64,000 nucleotides of DNA, from contig NZ_CP147020.1 in the NCBI RefSeq assembly GCF_037126435.1, forward strand, positions 1,587,293 to 1,651,292, written 5' to 3'. Both the position numbers and the translations under genes were made by a program. Positions within the stretch are counted from its first letter, which is position 1. Every line of letters starts with the position of its first letter. Origin of the DNA: Bernardetia sp. ABR2-2B. GTDB lineage: Bacteria; Bacteroidota; Bacteroidia; Cytophagales; Bernardetiaceae. Positions 3,958 to 34,175 of the stretch are shown here, piece by piece. The notes beneath the pieces are model-generated. The model ran no database searches. It saw nothing but the letters and a program-made list of their open reading frames with translations, and was not told the DNA's origin.

Positions 3958-4488
3958 ATGCAAAGAACACTTGAAGAACAACGAATTGAATTTTTGAAGC
4001 GACCATTTCTTGCTACACCATTAGCAGGGTTAATTATTTGGACAGTAATTGGATTATTTGGATTATTTTCTTCTACTATTGTAGCAACATGGTCAATTTT
4101 CATTGGAACTGGCAGCATTGTATATCTAGGTTTCCTTATATCAAAATTTACAGGTGAGAACTTTTTAGATAAAACTAAGCCAAAAAATGAATTTGATGCC
4201 CTTTTCCTCTTCACAACAGCACAGGCGATACTAGTCTATTCAATTGCAATACCATTTTTTCTTATAGATTATTCTTCCCTTCCCATGACTGTTGGAATTA
4301 TGAGTGGATTGATGTGGGTGTCGTTCTCTTGGATTATAAAACACTGGGTTGGAATCTTTCATGCATTAGTTAGAATAATTACAATTCTTATTCTTTGGTA
4401 TCTTTTACCTGAATATAGATTTATAGCTATTCCATTTGCAATCGTATTAATTTACATAATCACACTAATAATCTTAAAGAATAGATAG
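3958..4488 (+). CDS. hypothetical membrane protein
   Basis: 176 aa with 4-5 predicted TM helices. Confidence 0.5.
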   Translation: MQRTLEEQRIEFLKRPFLATPLAGLIIWTVIGLFGLFSSTIVATWSIFIGTGSIVYLGFLISKFTGENFLDKTKPKNEFDALFLFTTAQAILVYSIAIPFFLIDYSSLPMTVGIMSGLMWVSFSWIIKHWVGIFHALVRIITILILWYLLPEYRFIAIPFAIVLIYIITLIILKNR

Positions 4489-4593
4489 AAAATAAATTAA
4501 AAGTCTATCAAAAAAATCTCAATTTTACTCCTTATACTGCTCTCAGAGCTTGCTTGAGCAAACTATTGATACAGTCACATATATTTAAAAACA

Positions 4594-5757
4594 ATGAAAA
4601 ATTATACTTCCTTTCTGCTTTTTGTTTTACTGACTTTTATTTCCTCTTGTTCCTACATCAAAAACGTAGGATTACTTTCAGGGGGAGAATTAAAAGCCAA
4701 AAATTTTGTTCAAGAAGTTCCATTTGAACTCAAAAAAGATTTGATTGTCGTAAAAGTAAAACTAAATGCTGACACCGTTTTACGTGAATTTATTTTTGAT
4801 ACAGGAGCATTTAATAGTAAAGTAGAGAATAATCTAGCAACTGGCTTAGGTTTAGAAACTGTTACGACTAAATCCAACTCAACAGCACAAGGAGTTACTA
4901 AAGAAATTGAAGTTACTCGTTTGGACTCTATCACTTTTGGAGAAACAGCCTTTTATAAAATTGGTGCAGGAAAGGTCGTTTACTCTGAAAAGTCAGCTAG
5001 TCCTTGCATTGCCAAACACGGGCTTATTGGAGCAAATTTAATGAAACTGGCGCATTGGAAAATCAATTATCAAAATCAAAAACTTTATTTTTCAGATACT
5101 CCTTTTTCTATGGAAGGAGAATATTATAGTTTGCCTTTCGAAAGTCCTGTTTTGTCTGGAACGCCAAAAATAAACCTAAAAATAGGAGAAAAAACTGTCG
5201 AAAATGTCCTTTTTGATGTTGGTTTTAATGGTGGTTTGGTTTTGCCTTTGTCTTTGGCACATCATTTTGAGAGTGAAGAAACTGAGATTATTTTAGATAA
5301 ATCTACTTCTGGGATTTATGGCTCAAATGAAGATTCGCTTATTGTAAAGAAATTAAAAGTAGAGTTAGGAGGCTATAAAACTGAAATACTGGTAGAGTTT
5401 TCAAAACTAGGAAAGGCTCTAATAGGAAATGAGTTTTTGAAGCACTTTACAATTTGTATTGATTATGAGGAAGACAAAATTTTGCTACAACCTCAAAAGG
5501 AAGTAAAAATAGAAGCTCCAACAAAATTTTTATTAGGAATGCTAAATGAATCGCTTTGGGTCGTCAATCGTACAAATTCAAAGTTAGATTTACAGTTGGG
5601 AGATACCGTTCTTTCAGTCAATAATCACAAGCCAAAAGATTTATTTTCATCGCATTGTGATTACATAATAAATGCTAAGAAAATGTTTGAAGCTGACACT
5701 TTAGTTTTGGAGATGAAAAATGGCGATAAGATAGAGTTGAAAGATTACAAAAAATAG
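4594..5757 (+). CDS. retropepsin-like aspartyl protease lipoprotein with C-terminal PDZ-like domain
   Basis: Lipoprotein signal (…FISSCSY). DTGA aspartyl-protease signature (FIFDTGAFNS). A second pseudo-repeat (FDVGFNGG). C-terminal GDTVLSVNN PDZ-like motif. Confidence 0.6.
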   Translation: MKNYTSFLLFVLLTFISSCSYIKNVGLLSGGELKAKNFVQEVPFELKKDLIVVKVKLNADTVLREFIFDTGAFNSKVENNLATGLGLETVTTKSNSTAQGVTKEIEVTRLDSITFGETAFYKIGAGKVVYSEKSASPCIAKHGLIGANLMKLAHWKINYQNQKLYFSDTPFSMEGEYYSLPFESPVLSGTPKINLKIGEKTVENVLFDVGFNGGLVLPLSLAHHFESEETEIILDKSTSGIYGSNEDSLIVKKLKVELGGYKTEILVEFSKLGKALIGNEFLKHFTICIDYEEDKILLQPQKEVKIEAPTKFLLGMLNESLWVVNRTNSKLDLQLGDTVLSVNNHKPKDLFSSHCDYIINAKKMFEADTLVLEMKNGDKIELKDYKK

Positions 5758-5800
5758 ATATTTTTGTAGGAAATAGTGTCAAACCATAAAACCTTCTACA

Positions 5801-6478
5801 ATGAAAAATGTAAATTTGCTTTTCTGTATTCTACCCTTTCTAGTTGTATTTATTGTTTCATCTTGCCAAAGTTCCAAAACAGTTAGTACAAGTAATAATA
5901 CTGATGAAACGAATTATGTTTCTCAAATAAAATCATTTCAAGAAGAAATGAACAGCAGTTATAAAAATGCTAAAGAATCTCCTTTGGAAGAAAGTGAGCG
6001 CAAAAAATTTCAATCATTACCTTTTTTCAAAATTGATGAGAGTTATAAAGTAGAAGCTGATTTTGTCAGAACAACTGATGGAAAACCTTTTGAAATGCAA
6101 ACCACAACAGACAGAAAACCAATTTATCAAAAGTTTGGAGAGGTGAGTTTTGAGTTACTTGGCAAAAGACATATACTCAATGTTTATCAAAGCCAAGATT
6201 TAAGTAAAAAAGAAGAATACAAAAATTACTTATTTTTACCTTTTACAGATTTGAGTAATGGACAAGAATCCTATTACGGAGGACGTTATATTGATTTGCA
6301 AATTCCAGAAAGAGAAGCAGCCGATGGACAAGAGTTAGATAAAATTACGATTGATTTTAATAAAGCCTACAATCCGTATTGCGCTTATAATCATAAATAT
6401 TCTTGCCCAATTCCTCCAAAAGAAAATCATTTGGATGTGAAAGTTTTGGCAGGTGTGAGTTATGAGAAAACAAAGTAA
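5801..6478 (+). CDS. DUF1684-family lipoprotein
   Basis: Lipoprotein signal (VSSCQS). The conserved C-terminal block NPYCAYNHKYSCPIPPKEN is characteristic of DUF1684. Confidence 0.6.
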   Translation: MKNVNLLFCILPFLVVFIVSSCQSSKTVSTSNNTDETNYVSQIKSFQEEMNSSYKNAKESPLEESERKKFQSLPFFKIDESYKVEADFVRTTDGKPFEMQTTTDRKPIYQKFGEVSFELLGKRHILNVYQSQDLSKKEEYKNYLFLPFTDLSNGQESYYGGRYIDLQIPEREAADGQELDKITIDFNKAYNPYCAYNHKYSCPIPPKENHLDVKVLAGVSYEKTK

Positions 6479-6511
6479 GAAGATTAGAAATATAACTTTC
6501 AAAACCTTAGT

Positions 6512-8184
6512 TTACTTCAATCTCAATACATAAGAAAATCCACCTCTAAACTCTTGGAAATCTTGAAAAGACTTTGAAGAATTAGCAATTAAAGAAGAAT
6601 TGAATGAAAAAGTATGACGTTTTTTGAGAGTTGTACTTGCCGTAAAGTTGGATTGAATGACATTTCCATCAGCAATTTTATCTACAATACTTTGATTATA
6701 GGAAGCATCAAAATTGAGTTGAAGAGTCTTTTTGAAGATAGATTTTCCTGCGCCAAGCGTAAAACCATACAAGAGATTTTCTAAGTTAGCAACTTCTACT
6801 CTATTAAAATTCAGCCCAGACATAAACGAAAAACCAGATTGCATATATTGTGTAGAATGATTCAATGAAAAAACTAAGGCTTTCATATCTGCAAAACCTT
6901 GTGTAAAAATATTAAAATCATTGACTTGTTGATAAACAGCAGAAAGTGAAATTGTATGCACCTGCGAAGTATCTTTGATGATGTTATAAAATGGAGAAAC
7001 ACTAATAGATTGAACAGTATTGCGAATACGCAAAGAATCTGAAAGTGGAATATTGCCTTCTTCTTGATTATTGGTATTGTTGGTATAATTGAAATTAACG
7101 CCGTAATGAGGTTTTGGAAGTAAATTTATATTCAAATTTCCGATAGTGCGCCAAGTCGTTTCAGTTCTTGTATTCAATAGATTATTTCGCATTATTCCAA
7201 TCGTTCCATTGACCAAAATTTTATTTTTAGCAAGTGAAATAAAAGGCGTAAGACTAATTCGTTCCATATCATTGGCAAAAAAATACGCTCCCAACGTTTG
7301 ATATTCTGGCATCACTCGTTCATAATCTAATTTCAAAGAATAGGATTTTGCTCTCCAAGCAAGACCAATTTTTCCTGCATACGAAACTCGTGAAGACGCT
7401 TTTGGGTCGACAATCGTATATTCAAAATTACGAAAAGAAGTAGAAGCCAAATCTCTTGTAAAAAAACTCACTCCTACATCTGTATCTAAAGTCAGTTTTT
7501 TGAAAATAGTCAGTTTTCCTACCAAGCCTAGAGCTATATTTTCAGCAGGTGTTACGCCTGTGCTATCTGTCGGACGAAAAATAGAAGTAGAATCATCTTT
7601 TGCTTTAAAAAACACCAAATCCACAAAGTTTTGAGTATTTCCATAACCAGCTTTTATAGCATAACCTTGACGTTTGTAGCGAGGAAGAGCCAAATCTTTT
7701 ACTTCTTGTTGTGGCAAATCACTATTAAAAATTCCATTCATTGCACCAAAACGAAATTTTCCAGTATTGATTTCTACGGCTGCTCCCAAAAAAGTATGAC
7801 CGTTTAAGGTATAATTTGAATAAGTCAAATTTCGGTAACCCAAATGAAGTGTCAAAAATTTCCATTTAGGACTCATTCCAAATTGAAAAAAGGGACGCTG
7901 AAAATCTAGTTGTTGTTTGCCTAGTGTATAAGAAAATGGCAAGTCTATGCCACCTTTCAAACGCAAACCAAAGTTTCCAGTTACATTCCAAAAAAAGGAT
8001 TAGAACGCTGTGGGATTCCACGCACTCCATATACATTAAAAGAAGAAGAAATTGAGCCGTACCAGTTTACAAGATTTGATTTTTTTTGAGTATTTGTTGA
8101 AGTAGAATCGGTATTTTGAGCTGTTGCAGTAAAACAAAGACAACAGAGAAGAGCCAATAAAAGTAGTTTAGATAATGATTTCAT
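6512..8184 (-). pseudogene. outer-membrane beta-barrel protein gene interrupted by a 1-nt indel in a T7 homopolymer (N-terminal 8184..7981 and C-terminal 7966..6512 ORFs)
   Basis: The N-terminal 67-aa ORF carries a signal peptide (MKSLSKLLLLALLCCLCFTATAQ) and ends …SNPFFGM*. The downstream frame reads WNVTGNFGLRLKGG… immediately after the T7 run (plus-strand A7 at 7990-7996). Inserting one T fuses the frames into a roughly 555-aa protein. The body is rich in alternating hydrophobic/Gly/aromatic beta-strand patterns. Confidence 0.6.
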
Positions 8185-8312
8185 AAGCAGTAGGAGTTAT
8201 TCTAGCGCAAGATTCTATCTTGTGCTTATTATTTTGTAAGCATATGCTTACGAAAGAGAGTGTCTAAGCAAGATGCTTGAACGAGAAAAGTTTTTTAAAG
8301 AAAAAGAAGTAA

Positions 8313-10403
8313 TTATCTTAAATCAATTTTTACTTGATTACTCAATTCAGATTCTGAACCGTCTTTATAAATCAATTTTATGACATAGACAAAACCTTTT
8401 TGATTATCATAAAGCGAATAATCTATGTATTCATTTTCTTGAATGGTCGTTAGTGCGACAAATTCAGCTTCTTGTTCCTTACGCAAAATCATCACTTGAA
8501 AACCTTGCTCTTGCTTGTCTTTCCATTCTTTTCCTTCCCAAAACAAACGTAATTGCTTTTCCTTTTTCGAAAACTCTGCTTTTAGTGTTGGAATGAAATT
8601 TTGCTTTCCATTATCATAAAATTGAATTGGTGTAATGGTCGTAATGGCTGATAAATTTTCAGATTGGTCTTTTGCTTGGATAGCATATTGATACCATTTT
8701 GATTTTTCTGTTTTCTTATCCAAAAACTGGCTTGTTGTATCTTCAAAAGTTGCTAAAACCTGCCATTCATCACTCTCTTTTTCTCTTCTCAAAACAGAAT
8801 GCGAAAAAATATCTAAACTACTACTTCTTCTAAAATCTAGTTTAATTCCTTTTTCATTTACTTCATAAAAAGCAACAAAAGGCGAAGTTGGTGGAATAGT
8901 ATCAGGTTTAGATAATTCTAAAATTTCAGAATAATCAGACGCATTATAACGCAAATCTATTGCAGCAATTTTGTAATAAATCTTATTTGAAAGTGTATTT
9001 AAAGAAATTGTATCTAAAAAAATGTCATTTGCAATCGGAGAAACGGTCAGTTGTACAAACTCTCTTTCTTTTGCATTGGCATAATATACTCGGTAGCCTC
9101 TCAAATCTGCTTCTGTTCCTTCTTCCCACTTTAGCCTTACAACTCCCAAACTATCAATCGTTCCTTTTAGGTTTTTTGGTGTTTGAGGTGGAATGCTATC
9201 TACAAGCGTGTGCATTGCCGTCATTGATTTTGAGATATTTCCGTTTTTGTCGTGAGCATAAACAGTATAATAAGAATTAAAAACCTCTTCTGGATTTTTG
9301 TCTATAAATTCATTATTCTTACCTTTTGAGCGTATTGGCTTTTCATTGATATAAATAAATTCGTGTCCAACATCTAATGCTTTTGCTACAAAATACCCTT
9401 CTAAATCAGGTTGTTCGCCTATTGTTTCCCACATTATTTTTACAGAACCATCAGGTAAAGTTTCTGTAAAAATTCCACCAAAACCAGCAGCAGGAGATAA
9501 ATCAATTCCCTGTCCTTCTACCGTTTCAGAAGGCAAACCCATATCTCCAAACGGTGTAATCCCTGTTATTCTGTACGTTGCTTTTTGGTAATTTTGAGAA
9601 ACTGAATCTATATAAAAGTTGTAAGGAATATCTTGGTCTGTAATGCTTGGATTTTCATTTAATGTAAAAAAAGTCTTTCCATCGGTTGATTTTTCTATCT
9701 TAAAAGCTGAAAAAGTATCATTTCCATCTTTATCCCAAGTTATGGTTACTGCGTGTTCGCCTTCCTCCGTCGAAACTCCAATGACAGGATACGGCTCATA
9801 TTTTTCTGTAAAATCAATTCTTACAATCGCTGTATCTACTTCCATTCCTTCAATTTTTTGAGAAGGATAAATAGAATAAATAGCAAAACCCTCTGTTTTT
9901 TGAAAATTATCTTTGAAAGATAAACCCAAACCTTGAGCAGCTTCTTTCTCCATATCAGCCGACAACATTGCAAGAGCATAACGCATCTGTATTTCATTTT
10001 CCGTTTTTTTAGCCGTTTCAAAAGGCGAAGAAATGGCTGCTGTATTTACTGAAACTGTTCCATACATTGCTTCTGCTGCTGCTGTTACATAGGCATTTTC
10101 TGTATTGGTTTTGTTTTTCCATTCTTCTAATGAATATGGTAAAATAGGACTTTGCGTAATTTTTTCAGCTTTGAAATCATCACTATTAATATAAATTTTT
10201 TCAATGGTATAACCAATTTTATTTTTGTGCATTGTGCGCCAAAGCAAAGGTGAAGAAGGAGCAAAGCGCAACAACACTTCCGAGCCTGTAAAACGTCCCA
10301 TTGCTTGAATATTTACTGAATCTTTAAAAGGGTCATTATCTTGTGCAACTGCAAAAGAGAGAGAAACACCCAAAAAGAAGAGAATTAAAAATATATTTTT
10401 CAT
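8313..10403 (-). CDS. secreted multi-FN3 (fibronectin type III-like) repeat protein
   Basis: Signal peptide MKNIFLILFFLGVSLSFAVAQ. At least 5 repeats of about 90-100 aa with FN3 hallmarks (V.I.W…G…Y.V…YY.I.A.D..N.S). Confidence 0.6.
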   Translation of the reverse strand: MKNIFLILFFLGVSLSFAVAQDNDPFKDSVNIQAMGRFTGSEVLLRFAPSSPLLWRTMHKNKIGYTIEKIYINSDDFKAEKITQSPILPYSLEEWKNKTNTENAYVTAAAEAMYGTVSVNTAAISSPFETAKKTENEIQMRYALAMLSADMEKEAAQGLGLSFKDNFQKTEGFAIYSIYPSQKIEGMEVDTAIVRIDFTEKYEPYPVIGVSTEEGEHAVTITWDKDGNDTFSAFKIEKSTDGKTFFTLNENPSITDQDIPYNFYIDSVSQNYQKATYRITGITPFGDMGLPSETVEGQGIDLSPAAGFGGIFTETLPDGSVKIMWETIGEQPDLEGYFVAKALDVGHEFIYINEKPIRSKGKNNEFIDKNPEEVFNSYYTVYAHDKNGNISKSMTAMHTLVDSIPPQTPKNLKGTIDSLGVVRLKWEEGTEADLRGYRVYYANAKEREFVQLTVSPIANDIFLDTISLNTLSNKIYYKIAAIDLRYNASDYSEILELSKPDTIPPTSPFVAFYEVNEKGIKLDFRRSSSLDIFSHSVLRREKESDEWQVLATFEDTTSQFLDKKTEKSKWYQYAIQAKDQSENLSAITTITPIQFYDNGKQNFIPTLKAEFSKKEKQLRLFWEGKEWKDKQEQGFQVMILRKEQEAEFVALTTIQENEYIDYSLYDNQKGFVYVIKLIYKDGSESELSNQVKIDLR

Positions 10404-10466
10404 TGTTTTTTATTGATTAGAAACCGTCGTTGAGACTCAAATGCAGTCGTCAACGAGGCTTTTTAG

Positions 10467-13400
10467 TTATTTTTTGACTTTATAATTGAAAGATTTTCCT
10501 TCTAAAGTGATAGTATAGTTGTGCGAACCAAGCAGGTATAAAGGTCTTTCAAAAGAAGTGTAAAATGACTGATATTTTGAAGGTGTTATTCCTTTATAAT
10601 GACCATTTTGCAGAAAGTGATCTTTAACATTAAGAGCCTTATTGTGTGCAAATTTTTGAAGTTTTTGAATATCTCTAGCCAAAATGTAATTTCTATATTC
10701 GATAATCGGAATGTAGTATTTTGTATTACTATCAAAACCTAAGTTATTATCAAATTGGTTCTTAGAAGGTTTTGGAACATTGATTTGTAAATTCAACCCT
10801 CCTAGATTCAAGTTTTGCTTTGGAGCTTTTGCTCTTGCTTGTTGAATTTCATAAGGCGAAATAAGTGTTTTGGGAAGTGTATACGTTATTCCTTTTGGCT
10901 TAAATAAAGAACTTGGATAATTTGATGAGTTTCTATTCGAACCAACTCTATAAACCTTTTGATAATGAGGACGATAAAACATAATCGTATTTCTCATTTC
11001 CAAATTATAAATTGGGGGTTGAAACGTCTTGTTACTTCCAAAATTATACAATCCATAATAACGAGTAGGGTGGAATGTTGGAACAAAATTTAAAATTCCT
11101 TCTCCATACTTAGCTTTCAAAATAGAATGTTTGAAATGCTCGTTCGCATATTCTTGTGGAAACTGATTTGTATTTTGATAAGCTGTCATTAAACTAATGC
11201 CGTTTGTGGTGGGTGGAGTCAAATCTAAGTTTTTCCCGAAACCTAATTTTCTTGTCGCTTGTACATAACCATACGCATCCACTACATCAATCGGCTCATC
11301 ACAAGCAAGGGCAATCATAGCCACTTCTGCACACTGATTATTTCCTATTGATATAGTTGCTAATTCAGCTTGTTTAATACTCATTTTATTCATCTTATCT
11401 ATCATTTTATTATACTTTCCAGTTCTGAAATGATAAGTAAGAAGTTTGGTTTCAACTTGTTTTTTAGAGTTACGGCTGCCTTTGAGAGCTGTATAATATG
11501 CCATACTACTTCCTCCAATATTTTTCTCTATTTGATTCGTGTTTGCTCCTGCTGACAAGTTATTATTTCCTTCTTTATCAATACGAATAATACTGATTTC
11601 ATAAATGGTAGAACCTTCTAATTGTGGAATTTGGAAATTAACTTGGTCAAAAGTACAGTTTACCTTATCTGTATCTATGCTTTTGCCTGTTTTGAGGTCT
11701 GTAAAACGAGTTACAAAAATAGTTGAGCCTTCAGAAATATGTAGTTTTTCAAATAAAGGTTGGTCGCAAATAGACTTTGTAAGTTTTACATTACCCCACC
11801 TTGCGCCTTTAAAGGCATAACGAGACCTTGCAAAAGGATTTGCACTCACAATCTGACTTTGAGGAATCTTCTTTAATCCTGTATCTGTTGTGAAAGAAGT
11901 TGATTTATGTTGAGTAGCTAGTTTGGTATGAATATTATTTTCAATTTCCCAACCTGAAACTTCTACATAAAACGTATATTTTGTTTTTGGTTTTAAGGCT
12001 TCTTTTGCTACAAAATAGGCTTCTTTTTGGTATTTATCGAATTTGGTTTTACCTTCTACAATTATCTTTTTTCCTCCTTCTTGATATGATAGTTCAGCTT
12101 TTTGCAAACGAACATAAACTGTACTGACTTCATCTTGCTCATCTTCGTTTTCGGCAGGTACAACCAATTTGTAGGTATTACCTGAATAATACTTTGTAAT
12201 GCCTTGGCTTTCATCTCTACCAATTCCCAAATTAAAAGATACGCTTGGGTCAGTCATTACACTTGCTTTTTTAGAGCCTTCTTTTGGAGCAATTTGAGAA
12301 ATTAGAGGATAATCATCAAAAGGATTTTTATTTCCTTGTCCTGTAAACTCACATTTTTCGCCAAACTCAAATTCAAAATCCATATTTATTTTGATGCGAT
12401 TTCCTAAAAGTCCACCCTTTACGACAAAGTTTCCACCCAAATAACTAGGATTTGGAGCTTCTACCTCTACAAGTGCAGCACTCTTCAAGTCTATTATTTT
12501 GAATTCCCTCTCTTTACCAAATAGTTTTCCTTTAAAACCTGCTTCTCCACCAAAATATCCGTAAGCTTGTCCCTTTGCTCTCCATTTATTGATTCCAAAA
12601 TCAGATTTATTATTACAAAGTGTTTCATCACTATATTTAGCAAGAAGAATATCAAAACCTGCAAAGAGTTCAAAGTCAGCATAGAGAAACAAAAACTTTG
12701 CATCTAAAGCTCTTCTGAAACCTAGTCCCATTGCAAAACCTTTTCCTTCTTGCGCTTCTTGGTATTGTGCCTTTTGTGATATTGGAAGATTGAGTGTCTG
12801 ACGTATTTTTTTAGGGACAGATGGCAAATATTGAGGAATATGCGTTCCCATCATAAAATAACCATTGTAAGAAAGTGTGGTAACTTTCAAATCAATATTC
12901 ATATTCAAACGGCTCTTGTCATTCCAAGGCTCATCTTGCATAGCTTGTGATTTTGACCATTTTCCTAAATTCAGATACCATTTGTTTGGTTCAAAATGTA
13001 ATTCAAGGTTTCCGTTTCCTTGCACCACATCTCCAGCTTTTATATTGATTGCACCAGCCATATTAAAAGCAGGTTTGATGGCATCAATTTTTATTCTGAC
13101 CGAAGCACTAGCCACAGCATTTATTTTTTCTGCCATTGGTAAATCAATTGGCTGCATAAAATAACCATCGCCTTTTAAAATAAGCGAATCTAAAGCTAGT
13201 CCTTTTACATTATCATTTCGCATAAATACTTCAAAACCTAAATCAGCATTAAAACTAGAAGCAGCATCTGCACCACCAGAAAGCCCCAAAACCATATTGG
13301 CTTTGAAACCAAATTTGTCTTTTTGAGGTGTAAATGTAGTTCCTGAAACGGTTTGCCCTGCTTCTGAATTTGGATCAAAATCAACTGTTTCAAACTGCTC

Positions 13401-16400
13401 ATAAGAAACTGCTTTTGGCGTTTCTCCTCGTTTCATATTGTACCACGCACCACCACCAAAACCATAGGCAGACAAAGAAGTAGTCATAGGAATACCTGTT
13501 TTTAGCAATGCCATTGCATCAAAATACCAGTATCTAAATCCTTCTTTTGTAACTTGATTATTTTTGTTTTTGATAGAAAGTGTTTTTCCAATCTGTAATG
13601 TAGCATCTACTTTTACTAGCTTTTGAATATCAACACTTACTGCACCTCTAAAACCATTACCAAATGTTTGGTCTTGTTTATAAATATCAACTTCTCCTGT
13701 AAAGTGAGCTACACCGATATTTGCATCAATATTAATACTGTTTAAAGAAGTTTCTTCATAACTTAACTTTTTAGTATTTTTATTATACTTAGAAAAAACA
13801 GTAAAAGTAGTTCCTCCTTTTATTCCGTTAGCAAGGTTTATAAGCGTGAGTTGTGGTGATAACTTTATCCCATATATTTCTCCATTGCCTTTTTGTACAG
13901 AAGTAAGTTCTAAAGGTTTCTCAGGATCAAAGGATAAAGGAAAGTCTGCCAAACGACTTTGTGGTTGGTTTGGGTTTTCTAAAGCAAACTTTGTAAAAGA
14001 CTGAATGAGCTTATTAGAGCCACTTTTTAAAGCTAGTTTTTCGAAACGAATATCAGGAAGTGAAAAACTAGATACATTATTTTTATCTAATTCTTCTTCT
14101 TGTCCTTCCGAATTTTTGGCTTTTCCATCTGCCCAGTTGATACTTATCGCTCCATTTAATTCGGCATCAACGCCCCATTTATTATTCTTTTCTTTGATGG
14201 TAATTTTCGAGTCTTCGTCCAAATCTAAAGTAGCCACCCAAGCTGACACTGAATACTCTTCATTAGTTATGACAGAAAAAATAAAATCAGCATCTCCATT
14301 TTGATTGGCTTGATTGATAGAGCCTTCATAACTCAAGGCTTCATCAGTCAGAGGAATTTTGAGGTTTCCTTCCATAAGTCCACCAGAAAGCGAACTATTT
14401 TTGAGTGTAATTCCAAACTTTTCAAGTGAAATAGCCCAGTCATCAACATTTCCATCATTTAAAGAAAGTAATTCTCCACTTGCATCAATTTTTCCAGAAA
14501 AACCTAACTTGTCTATGATAAATTCATCAGCTTCCAACACTAAAGCCTTTTTATCTTTCTTAAATACTTTTGGCAGCGTTACACTCAAGTTTTGAATATA
14601 AACTCCTACCCAATCATTTCCTTTTTGATGTTTTTGTTTGACAGAAGTAGGTGTTTTTTTACCTGACAAATCCAACGACAAAGAAGGCGCAGCAAAAACC
14701 AAGTTTTGAGCCGATGGCAGTACAAAAGAAGGATAATTAAAATCAGCTTCAAAAATCCAACCTCCAGCCTGTTCGATTTCTGTTTGGAAAGTTGCTTGTA
14801 GTTTTTTGTTTTCGTTCTGAACTACTTTGTTATCTTGATACGGCAAAACTTTATTTCTTGACCACTCCAAATGACCTTTTAAAGCTACGTTTTCGATTCC
14901 TTTACAACTAAAATTTGCATACGTATTTTGCTGTCCTTTTTCTAGGATTAATGTCAAATCATTCGAAAGTTTTAAGGTTTTATCACTAGAAAGTGAAATT
15001 CTACCTTCTGTATCAGCACAAAAACCATTCGGACGGATTCCCAAGCCTGTTCCTGTAAGCATAAAAAGGTCATTCTGTACAACTTGTGGAATTTCCACTC
15101 CCAAAACAGTGTGCATTTTGGCTTCCGTTGGAGAAAAAATAATTCCGACAATCGCCAAATTATAATTATTATTATCTAAACTTAAAGGCAAACCTATCGG
15201 AACATTTCCACCCAATTTAGAAACTTGTCTTGAGACATTTCCTAAAAACTGATTGATTTGTTTGGCTTTACTAGCGATGCTTTCCAAATCTGCATTTGGA
15301 TTTTCACTTATGGCTTGACTAATCAAGTTTTGATTATCTACCTTTGCATAAATATTTCCATCAAAGAGTTGAAAGTTATCATTTACTTTCAGATTATTAA
15401 ATTTTACTTTTATAGGAGCATTCAGAAAGGCTACCAAAATTGTCCCTTCTCCCGAATTATTTCCATTGATAGAAGTAATTTTCATCTTAAATTTTCCTGC
15501 AATTATTTCTTGTCCTACTGAAAGCTTTAGGGGTGCAGAAGGTGTAGGCGCAACAATTTGACAAGCAGCCATACATTCAGGCGAATCTTGTGGGTCTTTA
15601 GGAATGTTTGGATTATCGTCATCGTTTGGTAAATCACCTCCATCCACAACGACTACTACATCATCAGGAGGGGGAGGATTATCATCTTCTCCATCATTAT
15701 CGTTATCATCATCACCTTCGTTATCTCCATCACCCACAACTACAATTTTATCATCTTCATAAGTAAAAGAAGTAACAGGGCTGTGTCCTTGATTTTTGAA
15801 TTGAATCGAATTGCTAGGGTCGTAAGCCGTTACACGAAGCGCATATTTTCGTCCTTCTTGCAAAGGAGGCATCGCCAAAGTATATGAAAATGTATTTGTG
15901 ATAATATTATCTTTCTCAAAATAAGTTTGAATAGATGGATTATTAAAAGCATCGTTGATATTGAATAAATTATTTGCACTCATATCCACAATTTCTAAAC
16001 GATAACGAGTTTTTGAAGGCACACCAGCAGGAGTCCAAACAAAATTCACAAATTGAGGTGTACTAGGATTTATTTTGGCTTCATGAAGTGGCAAAACCAT
16101 AATTGGAGGGTCATAATTGGTAATGACAATCGAAGCACAACCAAACTCAGAAGATAAAAGTGTGTTATTCTGAAACTCAAAAGCCTTTATACACAATGAA
16201 TAAGCACCTTCTGGAAGAGCCTCATTTTGAGCCAATGTAGAAACAGAAACCCCTTGTATTTGTACGTCGTTTTCTGTTAGATTTGCATTAAAACTTTGCA
16301 GTTGGTTGTAAGTAAAAGTTCTTGTTTGTCGTGGATTTAGAACAATAGGAGCAGTCGGAAAGTAACTCTCTTTTACTCTGACAGAAACACCATTATTTCC

Positions 16401-16628
16401 TTCTAAAGAAGGAATTAGACGGATTTGCTTGGTTTCATTGCTTGTGTTGGTAAGCGTAATAATTACAGAATTTCCTCTATTGATATAATTTTCTAAATAA
16501 ATAGAATACGGAGGAACGACTGTAACAGTCACGTTTATAGGTTGTGAAAAAGCTGTTTGAATGTTAAGAATACAAACAAATAAAAATGCTAAAATTGATA
16601 GGTAAGTTTGGTATTTTTGTGTCCTCAT
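10467..16628 (-). CDS. giant (2053-aa) secreted protein: N-terminal Ig-like region, poly-Asp/Asn/Gly/Pro linker, then a very beta-strand-rich C-terminal region of about 1700 aa
   Basis: Signal peptide (…LNIQTAFSQP). An acidic low-complexity tract VVVGDGDNEGDDDNDNDGEDDNPPPPDDVVVVVDGGDLPNDDDNP (about aa 295-345). Long runs of alternating hydrophobic residues with frequent G/Y/F in the remainder. Same strand and tight spacing with the two downstream genes. Confidence 0.6.
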   Translation of the reverse strand: MRTQKYQTYLSILAFLFVCILNIQTAFSQPINVTVTVVPPYSIYLENYINRGNSVIITLTNTSNETKQIRLIPSLEGNNGVSVRVKESYFPTAPIVLNPRQTRTFTYNQLQSFNANLTENDVQIQGVSVSTLAQNEALPEGAYSLCIKAFEFQNNTLLSSEFGCASIVITNYDPPIMVLPLHEAKINPSTPQFVNFVWTPAGVPSKTRYRLEIVDMSANNLFNINDAFNNPSIQTYFEKDNIITNTFSYTLAMPPLQEGRKYALRVTAYDPSNSIQFKNQGHSPVTSFTYEDDKIVVVGDGDNEGDDDNDNDGEDDNPPPPDDVVVVVDGGDLPNDDDNPNIPKDPQDSPECMAACQIVAPTPSAPLKLSVGQEIIAGKFKMKITSINGNNSGEGTILVAFLNAPIKVKFNNLKVNDNFQLFDGNIYAKVDNQNLISQAISENPNADLESIASKAKQINQFLGNVSRQVSKLGGNVPIGLPLSLDNNNYNLAIVGIIFSPTEAKMHTVLGVEIPQVVQNDLFMLTGTGLGIRPNGFCADTEGRISLSSDKTLKLSNDLTLILEKGQQNTYANFSCKGIENVALKGHLEWSRNKVLPYQDNKVVQNENKKLQATFQTEIEQAGGWIFEADFNYPSFVLPSAQNLVFAAPSLSLDLSGKKTPTSVKQKHQKGNDWVGVYIQNLSVTLPKVFKKDKKALVLEADEFIIDKLGFSGKIDASGELLSLNDGNVDDWAISLEKFGITLKNSSLSGGLMEGNLKIPLTDEALSYEGSINQANQNGDADFIFSVITNEEYSVSAWVATLDLDEDSKITIKEKNNKWGVDAELNGAISINWADGKAKNSEGQEEELDKNNVSSFSLPDIRFEKLALKSGSNKLIQSFTKFALENPNQPQSRLADFPLSFDPEKPLELTSVQKGNGEIYGIKLSPQLTLINLANGIKGGTTFTVFSKYNKNTKKLSYEETSLNSINIDANIGVAHFTGEVDIYKQDQTFGNGFRGAVSVDIQKLVKVDATLQIGKTLSIKNKNNQVTKEGFRYWYFDAMALLKTGIPMTTSLSAYGFGGGAWYNMKRGETPKAVSYEQFETVDFDPNSEAGQTVSGTTFTPQKDKFGFKANMVLGLSGGADAASSFNADLGFEVFMRNDNVKGLALDSLILKGDGYFMQPIDLPMAEKINAVASASVRIKIDAIKPAFNMAGAINIKAGDVVQGNGNLELHFEPNKWYLNLGKWSKSQAMQDEPWNDKSRLNMNIDLKVTTLSYNGYFMMGTHIPQYLPSVPKKIRQTLNLPISQKAQYQEAQEGKGFAMGLGFRRALDAKFLFLYADFELFAGFDILLAKYSDETLCNNKSDFGINKWRAKGQAYGYFGGEAGFKGKLFGKEREFKIIDLKSAALVEVEAPNPSYLGGNFVVKGGLLGNRIKINMDFEFEFGEKCEFTGQGNKNPFDDYPLISQIAPKEGSKKASVMTDPSVSFNLGIGRDESQGITKYYSGNTYKLVVPAENEDEQDEVSTVYVRLQKAELSYQEGGKKIIVEGKTKFDKYQKEAYFVAKEALKPKTKYTFYVEVSGWEIENNIHTKLATQHKSTSFTTDTGLKKIPQSQIVSANPFARSRYAFKGARWGNVKLTKSICDQPLFEKLHISEGSTIFVTRFTDLKTGKSIDTDKVNCTFDQVNFQIPQLEGSTIYEISIIRIDKEGNNNLSAGANTNQIEKNIGGSSMAYYTALKGSRNSKKQVETKLLTYHFRTGKYNKMIDKMNKMSIKQAELATISIGNNQCAEVAMIALACDEPIDVVDAYGYVQATRKLGFGKNLDLTPPTTNGISLMTAYQNTNQFPQEYANEHFKHSILKAKYGEGILNFVPTFHPTRYYGLYNFGSNKTFQPPIYNLEMRNTIMFYRPHYQKVYRVGSNRNSSNYPSSLFKPKGITYTLPKTLISPYEIQQARAKAPKQNLNLGGLNLQINVPKPSKNQFDNNLGFDSNTKYYIPIIEYRNYILARDIQKLQKFAHNKALNVKDHFLQNGHYKGITPSKYQSFYTSFERPLYLLGSHNYTITLEGKSFNYKVKK

Positions 16629-16730
16629 TAGTATTGATGATGATTTATGTAATGATTGTTTTCCTATTTTTTATTTAGAAAAGACATTATTTTATAGCCT
16701 CATTTTTTGATAAAAATGAGTATTGGTATT

Positions 16731-16759
16731 CTGATTTAACTTTTGATATTACTGATTTA
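16731..16759 (-). promoter_or_regulatory. candidate LytTR-type operator: direct repeats CTGATTTA spaced 21 bp, about 100-130 bp upstream of the giant gene
   Basis: CTGATTTA occurs at 16731-16738 and 16752-16759. The 21-bp periodicity matches the typical spacing of LytTR (AgrA-like) binding repeats. The background is AT-rich, so chance is possible. Confidence 0.2.
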
Positions 16760-16923
16760 TATATAGAACAAGTGAGTTAAGACTACTTTAAAAATACAGA
16801 AATAACTTACTCCTTTGACTTGTTAAAATATGTTACGTCAAAAATCTTTAAAAAGGTTCTGTAAGGCAAGTAAAATGAGGCAAACGGTAACTTTTGGGGC
16901 GAATGGCAAGGTAATTATATAAC

Positions 16924-19287
16924 TTAATCCTGTTTTTTTGTGAATATTTCTATTTTTTGCTTAATGATAGAATTGTTTTTTCTTGATACAGGGATAAGCT
17001 CATCGCCATAAAATAAGTGTAATTTGTAGCCTTGTGAGTTTCCAGAAATGTGTTTTACTTGATGAAGATTGATAAGATAACTTTTATGACAGCGAAAAAA
17101 TTGAGGAAAATCTTTTTCTAAAATTTCTGAAATAGATTTGAGTGTATTGCGAATTAGTTTTTTTGAAATGATTTTATTCTCTAAAAAAATAATTTCTAAA
17201 TAATTATCAGCAGCTTGAATGTAGAGTAAATTATCTGATTCTATTTTAAAATCTTCTTCTTTGTTTTCAGTTGGTATAGAGATAAGGTTAGATTTTATTT
17301 GCAATGATTCTGTAAGAGTAGGTTCTGTTTTTTTATGCTGTGATACTTCTAGTTGTTTCTCTACTTCCTCTATTTTTTCTAGTCTTTCAAATTCAATTCC
17401 TACAGAATTATTTTGAAACTGTTCTTTGTTATTAGGCAGCTTAGTAGTTTCATAGATCAATTTTCTCCTTGTTTCAAAATAATTTTTGATATAAAATGAA
17501 ATAAGAATAGGAAAAACAGCCACAGAAATAGTATAAAATTCAAATTTTAGGATTCCCCAAATTGTTAAGTCAATAAAACCAGCCCAATTAGCGTATAAAA
17601 TATTTACAAAACCTATTGTTCCAATATTGATAATGGTTACTACAAGTTCTTTTGCTACTGTCCAATTTTCAGTTTGAAATAGTTTAGGAAAAAAATAGAA
17701 TGCTACTACTTGAAATGCAAACATTACAGTAAAACAAATAAGTCCAGACCCAAAAGCGACCTCAAAAATATTTAATTGATGTCCGTAAGCTATTCCAAAA
17801 GGCTGAAAAATGAGCAAGAAAAAGCTGATAAACAGACTATAAACTACACAAGTCCAAATGCGTTTTTGAATAGAAGTTTCTAGTGGATACTGTCGTGTAA
17901 AAAATGAAATTATAGTTTCTTTACTTAAAGAAAACTGATTATTTCTAACTCTTTCTTCCTGTATTACGTTTTGTTTTGGTATAACTTTTTGGTTTTCTTT
18001 TTTAGTTTCTAAAGTCTGCAACTGCTTAATTTCATGTTCTTTTTTCAATACATTTCTTTTGTCTCCCAAAGCAAAAGAAATAAACAAAACTTCTAGGACT
18101 GAGCCTAATTGTACAGGATTTAAGTAATTACTAGGAGGTAACAAAACCAACGTTTGGGCTATGGCTAAGATAAAACCTAGTGTCAAGAATCCCCATCCTA
18201 ATAAATAATATTTGGCAGGTCTAAACCCTCGGTAATAACTTAAAATTCCTGTGATAAGCAATACAATTCCTAAGGTCAGAATTCCCACTTGTGATAACAT
18301 CCAAGCCTCAATTTTGAAGCTGGAAAAAACCAATAGAATAATCAGAAATCCAAAAACAATATAGAAGTTTAAAAGATATGAAAGCCATTTAGGCAATATA
18401 ATTTTTGCAAAAAAAGTCTTGGTAAAAATTACAGCAAAAATTTGCATCAGAGCAGCTTGTAGGATAATAAACTGGTTTAGCTCTGGTATTTCTGGCCACA
18501 AGTATTTAAAAGAATAGCTATAAATACTTGCCATAAAAAACATTGTAAAAAAAGCATAAAGCACATAAGTCAGATACACAAGTTCTCTATTAATCAGAAA
18601 AACAAAAAGGTTATATAAAATGACTAGAATCATAAAACCTAAGTATATGCCTTGAGCAAAATCAAAATCACGAACAAAGGCAAGGTAATTCTCTGCAGAC
18701 CAAGAACGAAAAGAAAACAAAAGGGGTTGTAGCGAACGGATGCGTATGTAAATCATACTTTCAGAAACTTCTTCGACTGGAAATGTAAAATAGCCCACTT
18801 GAAAAGGACGACTTGAAAAGGGGTAATTATCTCCTGTCGTAATTTGTTGAATAATTTTTCCTTGAGCATTTACTTGATAGAAAGTAATCTCATCTAAAGA
18901 ACCTGCTCCTAATTCAATACGGTTATCTCCTTTTGAGATACTTTGATAAGGTATTTTGAGCCAAAAAGACGAATAAGAACTTTCTAAATTTATATATTCT
19001 AATGTATTTTGTTCAAAATTATAGGATTCATTTCCTAGTAAGTCTTGAAGTGTGAGTGTTCTTTTAGCATCTTCAAGTATAGATACCTCTTTGCCTAACG
19101 TATGAAAAGTATAAGCCTGTGCTTTCAAAGACAGGCAAGTTAAAAGTGAGATAAAAAGGCTAAAAGTAAAGGCTACATAAACACACTTTTTAAATGATAT
19201 TCCCAAAGGGTATTGCTTTCTTAGTAATGAGACAAGAAACATAAAAAATAATAGTAGTAGTGGTAATTCTCTGATTGGGAATGTCAA
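16924..19287 (-). CDS. membrane receptor-regulator: 7TMR-DISM (extracellular DISMED2-like domain plus 7TM) fused to a C-terminal LytTR DNA-binding domain
   Basis: Signal/TM, an extracytoplasmic domain of about 170 aa, then 7 or more TM helices (typical 7TMR-DISM_7TM layout). After a coiled-coil linker, the C-terminal 100 aa match the LytTR fold motif (…LLYIQAADNYLEIIF…FFRCHKSYLINLHQV…). Confidence 0.65.
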   Translation of the reverse strand: MTFPIRELPLLLLFFMFLVSLLRKQYPLGISFKKCVYVAFTFSLFISLLTCLSLKAQAYTFHTLGKEVSILEDAKRTLTLQDLLGNESYNFEQNTLEYINLESSYSSFWLKIPYQSISKGDNRIELGAGSLDEITFYQVNAQGKIIQQITTGDNYPFSSRPFQVGYFTFPVEEVSESMIYIRIRSLQPLLFSFRSWSAENYLAFVRDFDFAQGIYLGFMILVILYNLFVFLINRELVYLTYVLYAFFTMFFMASIYSYSFKYLWPEIPELNQFIILQAALMQIFAVIFTKTFFAKIILPKWLSYLLNFYIVFGFLIILLVFSSFKIEAWMLSQVGILTLGIVLLITGILSYYRGFRPAKYYLLGWGFLTLGFILAIAQTLVLLPPSNYLNPVQLGSVLEVLFISFALGDKRNVLKKEHEIKQLQTLETKKENQKVIPKQNVIQEERVRNNQFSLSKETIISFFTRQYPLETSIQKRIWTCVVYSLFISFFLLIFQPFGIAYGHQLNIFEVAFGSGLICFTVMFAFQVVAFYFFPKLFQTENWTVAKELVVTIINIGTIGFVNILYANWAGFIDLTIWGILKFEFYTISVAVFPILISFYIKNYFETRRKLIYETTKLPNNKEQFQNNSVGIEFERLEKIEEVEKQLEVSQHKKTEPTLTESLQIKSNLISIPTENKEEDFKIESDNLLYIQAADNYLEIIFLENKIISKKLIRNTLKSISEILEKDFPQFFRCHKSYLINLHQVKHISGNSQGYKLHLFYGDELIPVSRKNNSIIKQKIEIFTKKQD

Positions 19288-20243: not shown

Positions 20244-20699
20244 TTATTCAATACAATATTTTATTTCTGTAAATAAATCTTGATAGGCTTTTTGGTCAAA
20301 TACAAATGAGCCTATTTTTTTATACTCTTCAAAATCTGTTTCTTCATATCCATTTTCATAAGCAAAATCTTTCCAAACAATTGAATCATCTAATCTTTCG
20401 ACTTTGACAGTCATTGCTCCACAACCAATATCTAAACATTCGGAGCAGCCATAAATCATTATCCTACCATTTTCTAATTCTGGTTCTTTTTCTAGTAAAA
20501 GTTCCTTTATTTTTTCTTCTCGGTAATTACTGTTGCTAGATGTCTCGATTACTCCTATCATTCCGAAATCTTTCACACTTAATAATTCAGACAAAGGTTT
20601 TCCATCAATTATAAAATCAAAATAAAACCTTTGACTCATCATTGCCCCTCCAAGTTCTTCAAGTTTAGTTTGAGTTTTGTATGATAAACTATTTTTCAT
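20244..20699 (-). CDS. hypothetical small protein with a CxxC…C cluster
   Basis: The annotated ORF overlaps the upstream gene by 52 nt from 20825. The internal Met at 20699 (MKNSLSYK…) gives a non-overlapping 151-aa product. It contains CSECLDIGCG. Confidence 0.4.
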   Translation of the reverse strand: MKNSLSYKTQTKLEELGGAMMSQRFYFDFIIDGKPLSELLSVKDFGMIGVIETSSNSNYREEKIKELLLEKEPELENGRIMIYGCSECLDIGCGAMTVKVERLDDSIVWKDFAYENGYEETDFEEYKKIGSFVFDQKAYQDLFTEIKYCIE

Positions 20700-20772
20700 C
20701 TTAGTATCTATTTTTATGAAACAGACTAGGAAGTCTGTTATAAAAATGATTTCAGCTTTACTGATAACTGAC

Positions 20773-22896
20773 TTAATACCCTCCTTGAAATTTTCGTACT
20801 CCCCATTCAAAACTAGCAAGTCCAATAATCAAGAGCATAATCCACCATAAATTAATTACTTCTGAAAGCTGTTCATTTCTAAAAACCGTCGGTGTAGGAA
20901 TCTGATTTTGTAGAGAATCTTGCAAAACTTGTAGATTATTAAGCGTATAAAAATTTCCTTTATTTTGCTGTGCCAGTCTTCGCATAACACCAAAATCTGC
21001 CGTAGCATTTAAGCTTTCCAATTTTATTTCTTTTACTGTAAATTGCCCGATTGAAACTTCTGTTTTCCCGTCTAGTTGAGTAGTTGCTTTAAAAGAATAT
21101 GCTCCCTCTGGAAGTGCAGAAGCAGAATATCTAAAGGGAGAAGCATTATTTGTAAAGGTATAAGTTCTTGTTTTTCCTTCTTCATCTTTAATTTCTAAAC
21201 GAATATTTTGCCCTAAAAGTGGTTCATAAATCGCATTATAAATTTCTACATCAAAACTCACACCATCAGAAGTAGAAAACTGTGAAGCTGTCGGCGCAAC
21301 TCTAAAACGTCTTTTGTCTTCTTTAGTAGAAAGATATTGAATTATTTTACTCAAAAGTGCATCATATCCTTCTTGATTTTTATTTTCTGCATATTCATTT
21401 AATCGCCATTGCCACGTATTTTCGGCAAGCCAAACTCCTGCTTTTTTGCCATTTTTTTCACTCATCACTACTAATGGCTTTTTGGTCTGAATATTTCCAA
21501 CTCGTTGATACAACATAATTTCAGCTTGTGGCGAAATATCATAATCAGCAAACGGAACAAGCGCAGGAGGATAGGAAGCAAAACGGCTTTTTTGTTCGTC
21601 TGTTAGATAAAACTTTGAAAAATTGGAGTTCCAAAATGGAATTACTTTATCAGATTGATTCCCTAAAGGACGAATTTTCACACCTGTATTCAATGAATTA
21701 AAAGCATTATAATCACTTTGCGCTCCAATAACAAAAAGCTCGGCAGAAGTGAGTTTGCGAAGTTTTTCTAAAACAGGTAGTGGTCTTCCCATTTTATCAG
21801 GAAATTGATGATAAATAATAAGGTCATACTTATCCTCTAATTTAGTAGTACGTAAATGAGGCAAGTGAATATAAGGCAAATAAATATCAAACTTGTAATT
21901 CTCATTTTTTTCTATCGCTGCACGAAATGCCTTTATATCTGGGTGAGGCGCAGCAGCAACTAAAAGAATTTTTTCTTTGCTATCAATAATGTCAATATAA
22001 GCGTGGGCTGTATTATTTTGCTTTGTAAACTCTCCTTCTTGTGGCACAATCGTAACAACATAATGCTGAATGCCTTTTGAGGTTGCTTTTATCAAAAACT
22101 CAATACTTTTAAGGTCATTTGGATTAGAACTAAATTTCGCTTTTTTGGTAGAAATGGTTTTTCCATTTTGTGATAAAATTACCGTAATTTCTCTATTCTC
22201 AAAACCTGTATGTGTAACTTCTGCCACGATTGGAAATTGATTTCCTAAATACGCCATCTTATTATGAAATAGACTTTTCAATATTATATCTTTTTTTGGA
22301 ATCGTATCGCCTACTCCAATTGTTTGAAGTGAAAAAGAATAGGGCGAAATATCAGGTGCAAGTCCTTGATTGTAAGCACCATCAGAAAGCAAAACTACAT
22401 TAGAAAGGTTACGATTTTCAAATTCACTTTGAATACTTTTGAGCAAATCACTAATAGGAGAAGAAGTATAATTGAAGTTTATTTTATTCGTATTATTATC
22501 AATATTATTTCTCAAACTATCATTTTCTAGTTCTCTCAAAGTTCTGTATTCCACATCAAATCCTTTTTCTTCAAGGTTTTGAGCTGTTTGTTGGATAGAA
22601 TTTAAAGCCGAATTTATTTTAGTAGAATCTTCTTGTAATAAAATTGAAGCCGAATTATCAATCGCAAAAACAACCGTTGGGTTTTCGTAACGAGTAATAA
22701 ATTGCTGCATCAAAAGTCCTATTAACAGGATTGCAAGAACAGAAACCCACAAAAAACGAATGGCAGCCAATGCTTTTTGCCAGTTTTTGCCCCACGGCGA
22801 ACTTCTTTTATAATACAACAAAGCAGCATAACCAGCTCCTAAAAGCAAAGCTACAAGTATCCAAGCACTAGAATATTCTGTTAAAAAGATAGGCAT
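20773..22896 (-). CDS. membrane protein with an N-terminal double-transmembrane (two_anch/TIGR02226-like) domain and a C-terminal TM anchor
   Basis: The N-terminus has two TM helices separated by a short loop (…AWILVALLLGAGYAALLYY…FLWVSVLAILLIGLLM…). A large extracytoplasmic region follows. The terminal helix is WWIMLLIIGLASF. Confidence 0.55.
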   Translation of the reverse strand: MPIFLTEYSSAWILVALLLGAGYAALLYYKRSSPWGKNWQKALAAIRFLWVSVLAILLIGLLMQQFITRYENPTVVFAIDNSASILLQEDSTKINSALNSIQQTAQNLEEKGFDVEYRTLRELENDSLRNNIDNNTNKINFNYTSSPISDLLKSIQSEFENRNLSNVVLLSDGAYNQGLAPDISPYSFSLQTIGVGDTIPKKDIILKSLFHNKMAYLGNQFPIVAEVTHTGFENREITVILSQNGKTISTKKAKFSSNPNDLKSIEFLIKATSKGIQHYVVTIVPQEGEFTKQNNTAHAYIDIIDSKEKILLVAAAPHPDIKAFRAAIEKNENYKFDIYLPYIHLPHLRTTKLEDKYDLIIYHQFPDKMGRPLPVLEKLRKLTSAELFVIGAQSDYNAFNSLNTGVKIRPLGNQSDKVIPFWNSNFSKFYLTDEQKSRFASYPPALVPFADYDISPQAEIMLYQRVGNIQTKKPLVVMSEKNGKKAGVWLAENTWQWRLNEYAENKNQEGYDALLSKIIQYLSTKEDKRRFRVAPTASQFSTSDGVSFDVEIYNAIYEPLLGQNIRLEIKDEEGKTRTYTFTNNASPFRYSASALPEGAYSFKATTQLDGKTEVSIGQFTVKEIKLESLNATADFGVMRRLAQQNKGNFYTLNNLQVLQDSLQNQIPTPTVFRNEQLSEVINLWWIMLLIIGLASFEWGVRKFQGGY

Positions 22897-26104: not shown

Positions 26105-26206
26105 TCAGTAAGAAATAAAATTTTTAAATAAAAAACCAAGAACTACAAAAGTAATATTTTATTTAAAATATCATCTATAAATATTCAAATAAAGTTAAAT
26201 AAAATT

Positions 26207-27394: not shown

Positions 27395-27402
27395 TTACTT
27401 CG

Positions 27403-28707: not shown

Positions 28708-28716
28708 TATATAAGA

Positions 28717-31231: not shown

Positions 31232-31246
31232 AAAGTAAAGAAACTA

Positions 31247-31966: not shown

Positions 31967-31969
31967 AAA

Positions 31970-32836: not shown

Positions 32837-32838
32837 AA

Positions 32839-34133: not shown

Positions 34134-34175
34134 ACTTGTTGGTATCGCCGAGCTAAAACACCAACAAAGGCTAGG
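34134..34175. repeat. copy 1 of the hairpin repeat family (core GCTAAAACACCAACAAAGGCTAG)
   Basis: TTGTTGGT…ACCAACAA inverted arms around the loop ATCGCCGAGCTAAA. Near-identical copies at 50347-50386 and 57696-57732. Confidence 0.75.

Follow-up and report, generated by a model that had tools for sequence, protein, structure and literature searches.

A one-base frame break at a T7 run splits a predicted outer-membrane barrel gene beside a TANFOR giant in Bernardetia sp. ABR2-2B

We analysed a 64 kb stretch of the genome of Bernardetia sp. ABR2-2B (contig NZ_CP147020.1, positions 1,587,293 to 1,651,292; hereafter the window), in which a gene for a predicted outer-membrane beta-barrel is interrupted by a one-base frame break at a run of seven T's (T7). 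The explanation that we prefer, with confidence that is about evenly poised, is a genuine, very recent, lineage-specific and non-programmed null mutation of the barrel gene. The broken gene stands next to two intact genes, encoding an Fn3-repeat protein and a giant protein with an N-terminal TANFOR-type region. Table 1 collects the coordinates, which count from the first letter of the window.

On the minus strand the break reads CAG CGT TCT AAT CCT TTT TTT GGA ATG TAA CTG GAA ACT TTG GTT. An earlier note on this DNA had reported that a one-base indel in a T7 homopolymer splits a barrel gene at 7981-8000, and we find both the sequence and the coordinates accurate. The upstream open reading frame (ORF), ORF-N, runs into a stop shortly after the T's, and the remainder of the gene continues in another frame. 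Since the two frames are open together only within 7984-7999, an event that restores the frame is possible only there. Adding one T at the run yields a product of 557 amino acids (aa) whose junction reads NPFFWNVTGNFGLRLKGG, in the wider context IPQRSNPFFWNVTGNFGLRLKGG. When the repaired protein was aligned by tblastn, residues 1-65 fell on 8184..7990 and residues 64-557 on 7996..6515. A mechanical ORF list starts the downstream part at a minus-strand TTG and reports it as ORF-C (7966..6512, 484 aa). The note had called this start artificial, rightly so, as the TTG is merely the first start-like codon after the stop. Removal of two T's (leaving T5 and NPFWNV) was tried as an alternative repair; it also restores the frame, but we consider it less likely because it drops a residue that close orthologues retain (PFFW or PFYW).

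Searches with the repaired protein show that the two parts belong together. They recovered 254 homologues, nearly all of them single chains of 550-570 aa that span both parts. Most come from Bacteroidota (Saprospiraceae, Mucilaginibacter, Parapedobacter, Algoriphagus) and none carries a Pfam domain; likewise, no family model in Pfam or NCBIfam matched the repaired protein itself. The closest two homologues are 559 aa long, align at 94% and 92% identity with 100% coverage, and read RSNPFFWNVTGNFGLRLKGG at the junction. The repaired junction agrees with that of the full-length homologues, of which the closest are 94-95% identical, sharing the motif RSNPFFWNVTGNFG, and RSNPF(F/T)W is retained there in more distant homologues as well. 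ORF-N and ORF-C are thus adjoining frames of the same strand that align consecutively to one protein elsewhere, as expected of a gene disrupted by a frameshift. To judge from these alignments they are evidently one gene, with a continuity that far exceeds chance. No paralogue of the barrel gene was found in the window.

A reading of the two ORFs as genuine separate genes, one for a small secreted peptide and the other for a cytoplasmic protein of 484 aa, has the mechanical ORF list as its sole support. The single-chain homologues speak against it, and so does the origin of the TTG start. Furthermore, ORF-C is missing a signal peptide as well as strand 1 of a closed barrel, and the idea that it functions by itself was rejected on these grounds. 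We regard the two-gene reading as effectively refuted.

The same site can be read in five close assemblies, which hold four distinct sequences from independent sources. They comprise two metagenome lineages (L001, and L002 with L003), Bernardetia sp. OM2101, as a complete genome (L004), and a Cytophagales metagenome-assembled genome (MAG; L005), and they are species-level relatives of the window, with a synonymous divergence (dS) of about 0.4-0.5. A scan of Joint Genome Institute (JGI) metagenomes found no relative, and look-ups of two window proteins by exact sequence gave no record. Every one of the five is in frame. L001 and L005 read AAT CCA TTT TTT TGG and so carry an in-frame T7 of their own, L002 and L003 read AAT CCA TTT TTC TGG, and L004 reads AAT CCA TTT TAC TGG. 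Aligned to these sequences the window reads AAT CC- TTT TTT TGG; the missing base is the third base of the proline codon, a position that every relative fills with A. This makes the split a singleton. The note had suggested comparing orthologues, with a shared split pointing to a fixed pseudogene or two genuine genes; none of the five shares it. Its proposal that one extra T joins the frames holds in that the 557-aa product results. The base that is missing, however, aligns with the third position of proline, and a T8 precursor would be a step that we infer. The tract is not conserved as a run either, since two lineages interrupt it by substitution (TTTTTCT and TTTTACT), and no variants in tract length occur among the four distinct close sequences.

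We asked how the gene has evolved apart from the break. Pairwise ratios of nonsynonymous to synonymous substitution rates (dN/dS, or omega) lie at 0.058-0.090 when the repaired window gene is set against the four relatives, a range no different from that among the intact relatives (0.063-0.111). Changes unique to the window lineage number 28 synonymous and 8 nonsynonymous, alongside 14/2, 19/10, 23/7 and 29/3 in the other lineages. No second disabling lesion was found in the barrel gene, and the raised dN/dS and further lesions of an old, decaying pseudogene are not seen. The partner genes for the Fn3 protein and the TANFOR giant are likewise intact, with omega 0.10-0.22. These substitution patterns indicate that the barrel gene has apparently been under purifying selection for essentially the whole history of the window lineage. 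With neither relaxed selection nor a second lesion, the break must be very recent, or not real, or tolerated through continued production of the protein.

That the break is not real is a serious alternative, which we hold tentatively: the base would have been lost in base-calling or consensus building at the homopolymer, and the gene in the cells would be intact, either as CCT followed by T7 (a T8 run) or as CCA followed by T7. Such an error accounts for a gene that is otherwise perfect, without relaxed selection or a second lesion, and for the intact partner genes, and it places the lesion at a homopolymer, the classic site of under-calling. It is also what the work of Antonov et al. (2013, PMC3711429) leads one to expect of homology-validated singleton frameshifts. 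Two loci from relatives that are long-read MAGs (L010, 2226-9994, and L011, 11676-14582) show how common such artefacts are. There the TANFOR giant and Fn3 genes beside the barrel are cut into many short called genes, and the chopped genes look like assembly frameshifts.

Against an error in ABR2-2B stands the quality of the sequence around the break. The window contains 135 A/T runs of at least 7, about 1 per 470 bp (100 of 7, 29 of 8, five of 9 and one of 10), and despite these no other split gene was seen among some 55 ORFs. Pfam scans of 35 other ORFs of the window found no domain divided between adjoining ORFs. One further candidate, at 20244-20825 and 20773-22896 with a 53-nt overlap, was rejected; past the upstream stop the second ORF starts at an ATG of its own (MKNSLSYK...), the junction contains no homopolymer, and these are two separate genes. 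The window is colinear with L004 over 6513-17945 at about 90% identity. In the coding alignment of about 10 kb with L004 all indels are multiples of 3 or compensated pairs, with a single exception at 7996/7997, so that the break is the sole frame-breaking indel. As only one such indel occurs across about 10 kb and no further gene is seen to be broken, we conclude that this assembly handles homopolymers well; it accommodates 35 runs of at least 8 and is not generally frameshift-prone. In addition, if the true sequence were CCA followed by T7, as in the relatives, an error would have removed an A that is not part of a repeat, which is atypical of homopolymer errors. Because the assembly takes its 35 longer runs without visible error, we slightly favour a real mutation.

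For a real mutation two histories fit. Either the A of the proline codon was lost directly, or it first changed to T and a T8 was then shortened to T7; we favour the second. In this most likely path, a synonymous CCA to CCT change at Pro64 would have lengthened the run to T8, and replication slippage would then have removed one base. Slippage at the run is the likely cause because A/T runs of at least 7 cover 29 of the 1673 nt of the gene, which gives an indel placed at random a chance of about 0.02 of touching one. A CCT precursor is plausible since CCT is the preferred proline codon here (259 CCT against 179 CCA in the window, and 23 CCT-TTT against 8 CCA-TTT). The shortening of a T8 nevertheless has to be read as inference, as two intact relatives carry an in-frame T7. 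Translation of the resulting allele would halt two codons past the run and release a 67-residue peptide made up of the signal peptide and strand 1. The residual 490-odd codons would have no start with a signal peptide, no barrel would reach the outer membrane, and the allele would be null except for trace slippage read-through.

Several points weigh against a recent null mutation. Sequence alone does not separate a base-calling error from a real deletion, and the postulated T8 precursor occurs in no relative, all of which have CCA. For finished genomes, Antonov et al. (2013, PMC3711429) expected sequencing errors to account for most homology-validated singleton frameshifts. The case resembles the fs-genes collected with GeneTack in the same study (PMC3711429), which share the one-base frame transition and the two halves that match one protein elsewhere, with a transition that is absent from orthologues and no conserved recoding motif. 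We see no essential difference from them; beside them, the lesion here is demonstrably very young, with no relaxed selection and no second lesion. Of the options that the earlier note had listed, sequencing error and recent inactivation lead, and the word "recently" is borne out by the missing signs of decay; its third option, phase variation, falls behind.

In simple-sequence contingency loci, homopolymers make surface genes phase-variable in Neisseria, Haemophilus, Campylobacter and Helicobacter. The barrel gene shares with them a homopolymer near the 5' end of a surface or outer-membrane gene, where one base switches between a full-length and a truncated product. Applied here, a contingency tract with the states T7 (OFF) and T8 (ON) would toggle the barrel and with it the display or export of the giant TANFOR protein. 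The break does lie at or near a homopolymer at codon 64 of 557, close to the 5' end of a gene in a surface locus, gain of one base restores the exact orthologous protein, and a reversible state would be in keeping with the lack of decay. However, the tract is short (7), of A/T and not G/C, and T7 is commonplace, as 100 runs in the 64 kb are exactly 7 long and a further 35 exceed that. From a first-order Markov model of the window one expects 60 (A) and 76 (T) runs of at least 7, about the number observed, and T7 is of ordinary length in this genome. The same gene holds an in-frame A8 run 90 nt upstream, kept as A8 in the window and in L001-L003 and interrupted by a G in L004 and L005. Neither an unusual length for the genome nor conservation with length differences among relatives was found for the broken tract, which is unconserved, always follows an A in relatives that are in frame, and shows no length variants. 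In many genomes, selection against A/T runs is evident only once they reach about 9 nt (Baranov et al. 2005, PMC1088944), and instability at 7-8 nt should therefore be modest. A search for inverted repeats around promoters and for tandem repeats turned up only short, chance-level ones, and a promoter and terminator scan stayed below shuffle expectation. With a tract of ordinary length that relatives interrupt and that does not vary, the slipped-strand switch which the earlier note had singled out as interesting has little in its favour, and we consider it improbable.

Recoding would make the full-length barrel from the T7 allele itself, either as a programmed device or as adventitious low-level rescue. 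The routes would be -1 ribosomal frameshifting on U_UUU_UUU, with tRNA-Phe in the P and A sites re-pairing one base back and UGG as the next codon (NPFFW), or insertion of an extra U by RNA polymerase. CCU UUU UUU GGA indeed contains a formally perfect zero-frame heptamer of the X_XXY_YYZ type, either route yields the exact orthologous protein, and low-level compensatory frameshifting on broken homopolymers is known (Atkins et al. 2016, PMC5009743). Yet the out-of-frame arrangement is unconserved, and recoding is not a programmed feature of the barrel family since the orthologues are all in frame. No stimulatory structure was found downstream: the 90 nt that follow fold at -18.6 kcal/mol (z = -1.38), and 19 of 200 shuffled sequences fold as well. 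No Rfam element lies at the site, and an Rfam E-value search of 6000-9000 gave just a spurious snoRNA match. In E. coli, U_UUU_UUU also shifts far less readily than A_AAA_AAG (Atkins et al. 2016, PMC5009743), and the runs on which productive transcriptional slippage has been documented are of 9 and sometimes 8 (Baranov et al. 2005, PMC1088944), whereas the run here is 7. The likeness to Thermus dnaX (A9), Shigella mxiE (T9) and insertion sequence (IS) elements (PMC1088944, PMC5009743) lies in a U7 run on which one added U or a -1 shift gives the orthologous product; the run here is shorter, lacks a stimulator and is out of frame in an unconserved arrangement. One would expect a few percent of product at best. 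Adventitious rescue at trace level is possible and a programmed device is not supported; as an explanation of the locus, recoding is very unlikely.

We examined the structure that the break would remove with an AlphaFold2 model of the 94% orthologue, built from a 48-sequence alignment. The model (predicted local distance difference test, pLDDT, 87.5; predicted template modelling score, pTM, 0.77) shows a signal helix at the N-terminus and, after it, one barrel of 26 strand elements. ORF-N supplies a Sec-type signal peptide, MKSLSKLLLLALLCCLCFTATA|Q, and Q23 right after it is invariant in the family alignment. An N-terminal glutamine after signal peptidase I cleavage is a habit of Bacteroidota, and Q23 fits it. 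Strand 1 corresponds to residues 41-57 and strand 2 to residues 66-78 of the model, with the break in the turn between them; the barrel protein ends in ...FSYVLRLK. Given the signal peptide and the closed all-beta barrel, we predict with confidence that the product is an outer-membrane beta-barrel of about 26 strands, and the earlier note's naming of an outer-membrane barrel agrees with the model.

Foldseek searches against the PDB returned outer-membrane barrels only, namely, as the best matches, MtrB (6r2q_B, E 1.6e-10, TM 0.49) and the FimD/PapC ushers, and further LptD and SprA. The likeness to MtrB (26 strands), the ushers (24), LptD (26) and SprA is that of a single large barrel, and at identities of 7-12% and TM-scores of 0.3-0.5 it is a resemblance of general architecture. 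In contrast to these proteins, the barrel here has no plug, POTRA or usher accessory domains and belongs to no Pfam or NCBIfam family. As with MtrB, the ushers and TpsB, the gene adjoins a presumed cargo gene.

Table 1. Coordinates of the barrel gene, its frame break and its two partner genes in the window.
Feature	Position	Strand	Remarks
T7 homopolymer (A7 on the plus strand), after CC	7990..7996	-	exact length 7; frame break at the boundary of the Pro codon and the T run
16-nt overlap, both frames open, T7 inside	7984..7999	-	TAA 8002-8000 (downstream frame); TAA 7983-7981 (ORF-N)
ORF-N, 67 codons, ATG; signal peptide, linker, strand 1, 2 out-of-frame codons (GM), TAA	8184..7981	-	
Downstream frame (-1), 490-odd codons, strands 2-26, without its own signal peptide	7999..6512	-	first possible start TTG 7966
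Whole disrupted gene	6512..8184	-	one added base gives 557 aa; domain-less Bacteroidota family, predicted outer-membrane beta-barrel
In-frame A8 run (T8 on the plus strand), same gene	8080..8087	-	90 nt upstream of the broken T7, longer
Fn3-repeat protein, 696 aa, signal peptide, intact	8313..10403	-	weak Pfam fn3 match; omega 0.12
Giant protein, 2053 aa, N-terminal TANFOR-type region, signal peptide, intact	10467..16628	-	omega 0.11-0.21

The neighbourhood of the barrel gene is conserved. The giant surface protein that the earlier note had placed next to it is there, as a protein of 2053 aa with a probable N-terminal TANFOR domain. Its match to TIGR02542 (TANFOR; E 4.9e-07, 29.8 bits) lies below the NCBIfam cut-off of 67, and its N-terminal 290 aa show 28-33% identity (E 1e-26 to 1e-43) to giants beside distant barrel homologues. 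The Fn3 protein is 91% identical to its counterparts in L004 and L005, 32% to that of L009 and 29% to that of L013. The trio is intact and in the same order in L004 (2050, 696 and 559 aa) and L005 (2056, 711 and 557 aa). Besides the window, we surveyed ten loci in which barrel homologues occur, at identities as low as 29%. In eight of the ten (L004, L005, L006, L008 and L010-L013), and as far out as 29-33% identity, an N-terminal region of TANFOR type is found within 10 kb of the barrel, mostly adjoining it, and an Fn3 partner is present in seven. Genes are ordered giant-Fn3-barrel or barrel-giant-Fn3, and the sizes run to 2050-2650 aa for the TANFOR giant, about 660-735 aa for the Fn3 protein and about 560 aa for the barrel. 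As a separate observation, the body of the giant is 73% identical to that of L005 over residues 349-2052, compared with 88% for the TANFOR N-terminus, and among close relatives it changes far more rapidly than do the barrel and the Fn3 protein.

TANFOR is a class of polymorphic toxins of Bacteroidetes whose export route is unknown; export by type IX secretion (T9SS) has been hypothesised, and Fn3 is enriched nearby (Jana, Salomon & Bosis 2020, PMC7073777). That paper makes no mention of a barrel partner. The giant here resembles these toxins in its N-terminal TANFOR-type region, its signal peptide and the adjoining Fn3 protein. It differs in that no C-terminal toxin domain or immunity gene is recognised and the TANFOR match is sub-cut-off. 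Pfam and NCBIfam searches of its C-terminal ~400 aa found neither a toxin domain nor a T9SS C-terminal sorting domain, and novel toxin domains are possible there. No small immunity-like gene follows the giant; the next gene is that of the Fn3 protein. The barrel may be a functional partner of the TANFOR giant, possibly its outer-membrane export or anchoring component. It is a candidate for a dedicated outer-membrane component because it adjoins TANFOR genes, and the published proposal (PMC7073777) is of the T9SS and not of a barrel. A more elaborate reading, in which the barrel is a dedicated export or anchoring partner in a hitherto undescribed two-partner-like route with the Fn3 protein, and a low-frequency T7/T8 switch or leaky slippage gates display of the giant, seems to us a long shot.

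Other features of the locus were recorded alongside. A perfect 14-nt palindrome, TAAGCATATGCTTA, lies at 8237-8250 in the 128-nt spacer between the Fn3 and barrel genes (1 in the window, 0.01 expected), and a 10-bp hairpin at 8204-8226 follows it. Both are kept nearly base for base in L004 and are not kept in L001, L002 and L005; they may represent an operator, an internal promoter or an attenuator element. Directly upstream of the TANFOR giant, on the same strand, a gene for a 787-aa fusion of a 7TMR-DISM sensor and a LytTR DNA-binding domain occupies 16924-19287 (minus strand). Its 3' part is kept at the same position in L004 and L005 (86-88% identity by blastn), and the protein may be a locus-specific regulator. 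On the other side, synteny with L004 ends exactly at the barrel stop codon (~6512 in the window, ~11616 in L004), so that a rearrangement boundary closes the TANFOR-Fn3-barrel block. Nothing that matches the DUF1684, aspartyl-protease-like and DUF7010 genes of the window (3958-6478) is present in the 10 kb downstream in L004. Elsewhere in the window, a polysaccharide-biosynthesis cluster (~26200-44900, minus strand) contains at least 7 glycosyltransferases (GT1/GT4 and GT2), FkbM and other methyltransferases, capsule-synthesis proteins and a fused GFO/IDH/MocA oxidoreductase and NAD-epimerase (754 aa); its many T8/T9 runs are all in frame.

By itself the frameshift is of little weight, and the annotation of the gene should flag it as "frameshifted; possible sequencing error". 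If the base is truly absent in the cells, a consequence for the TANFOR protein may follow, and the strain would be a natural barrel null in which the TANFOR giant and its Fn3 partner are intact, making it a convenient tool. The association of the barrel with TANFOR genes is worth more, as it offers a testable candidate for the missing outer-membrane component.

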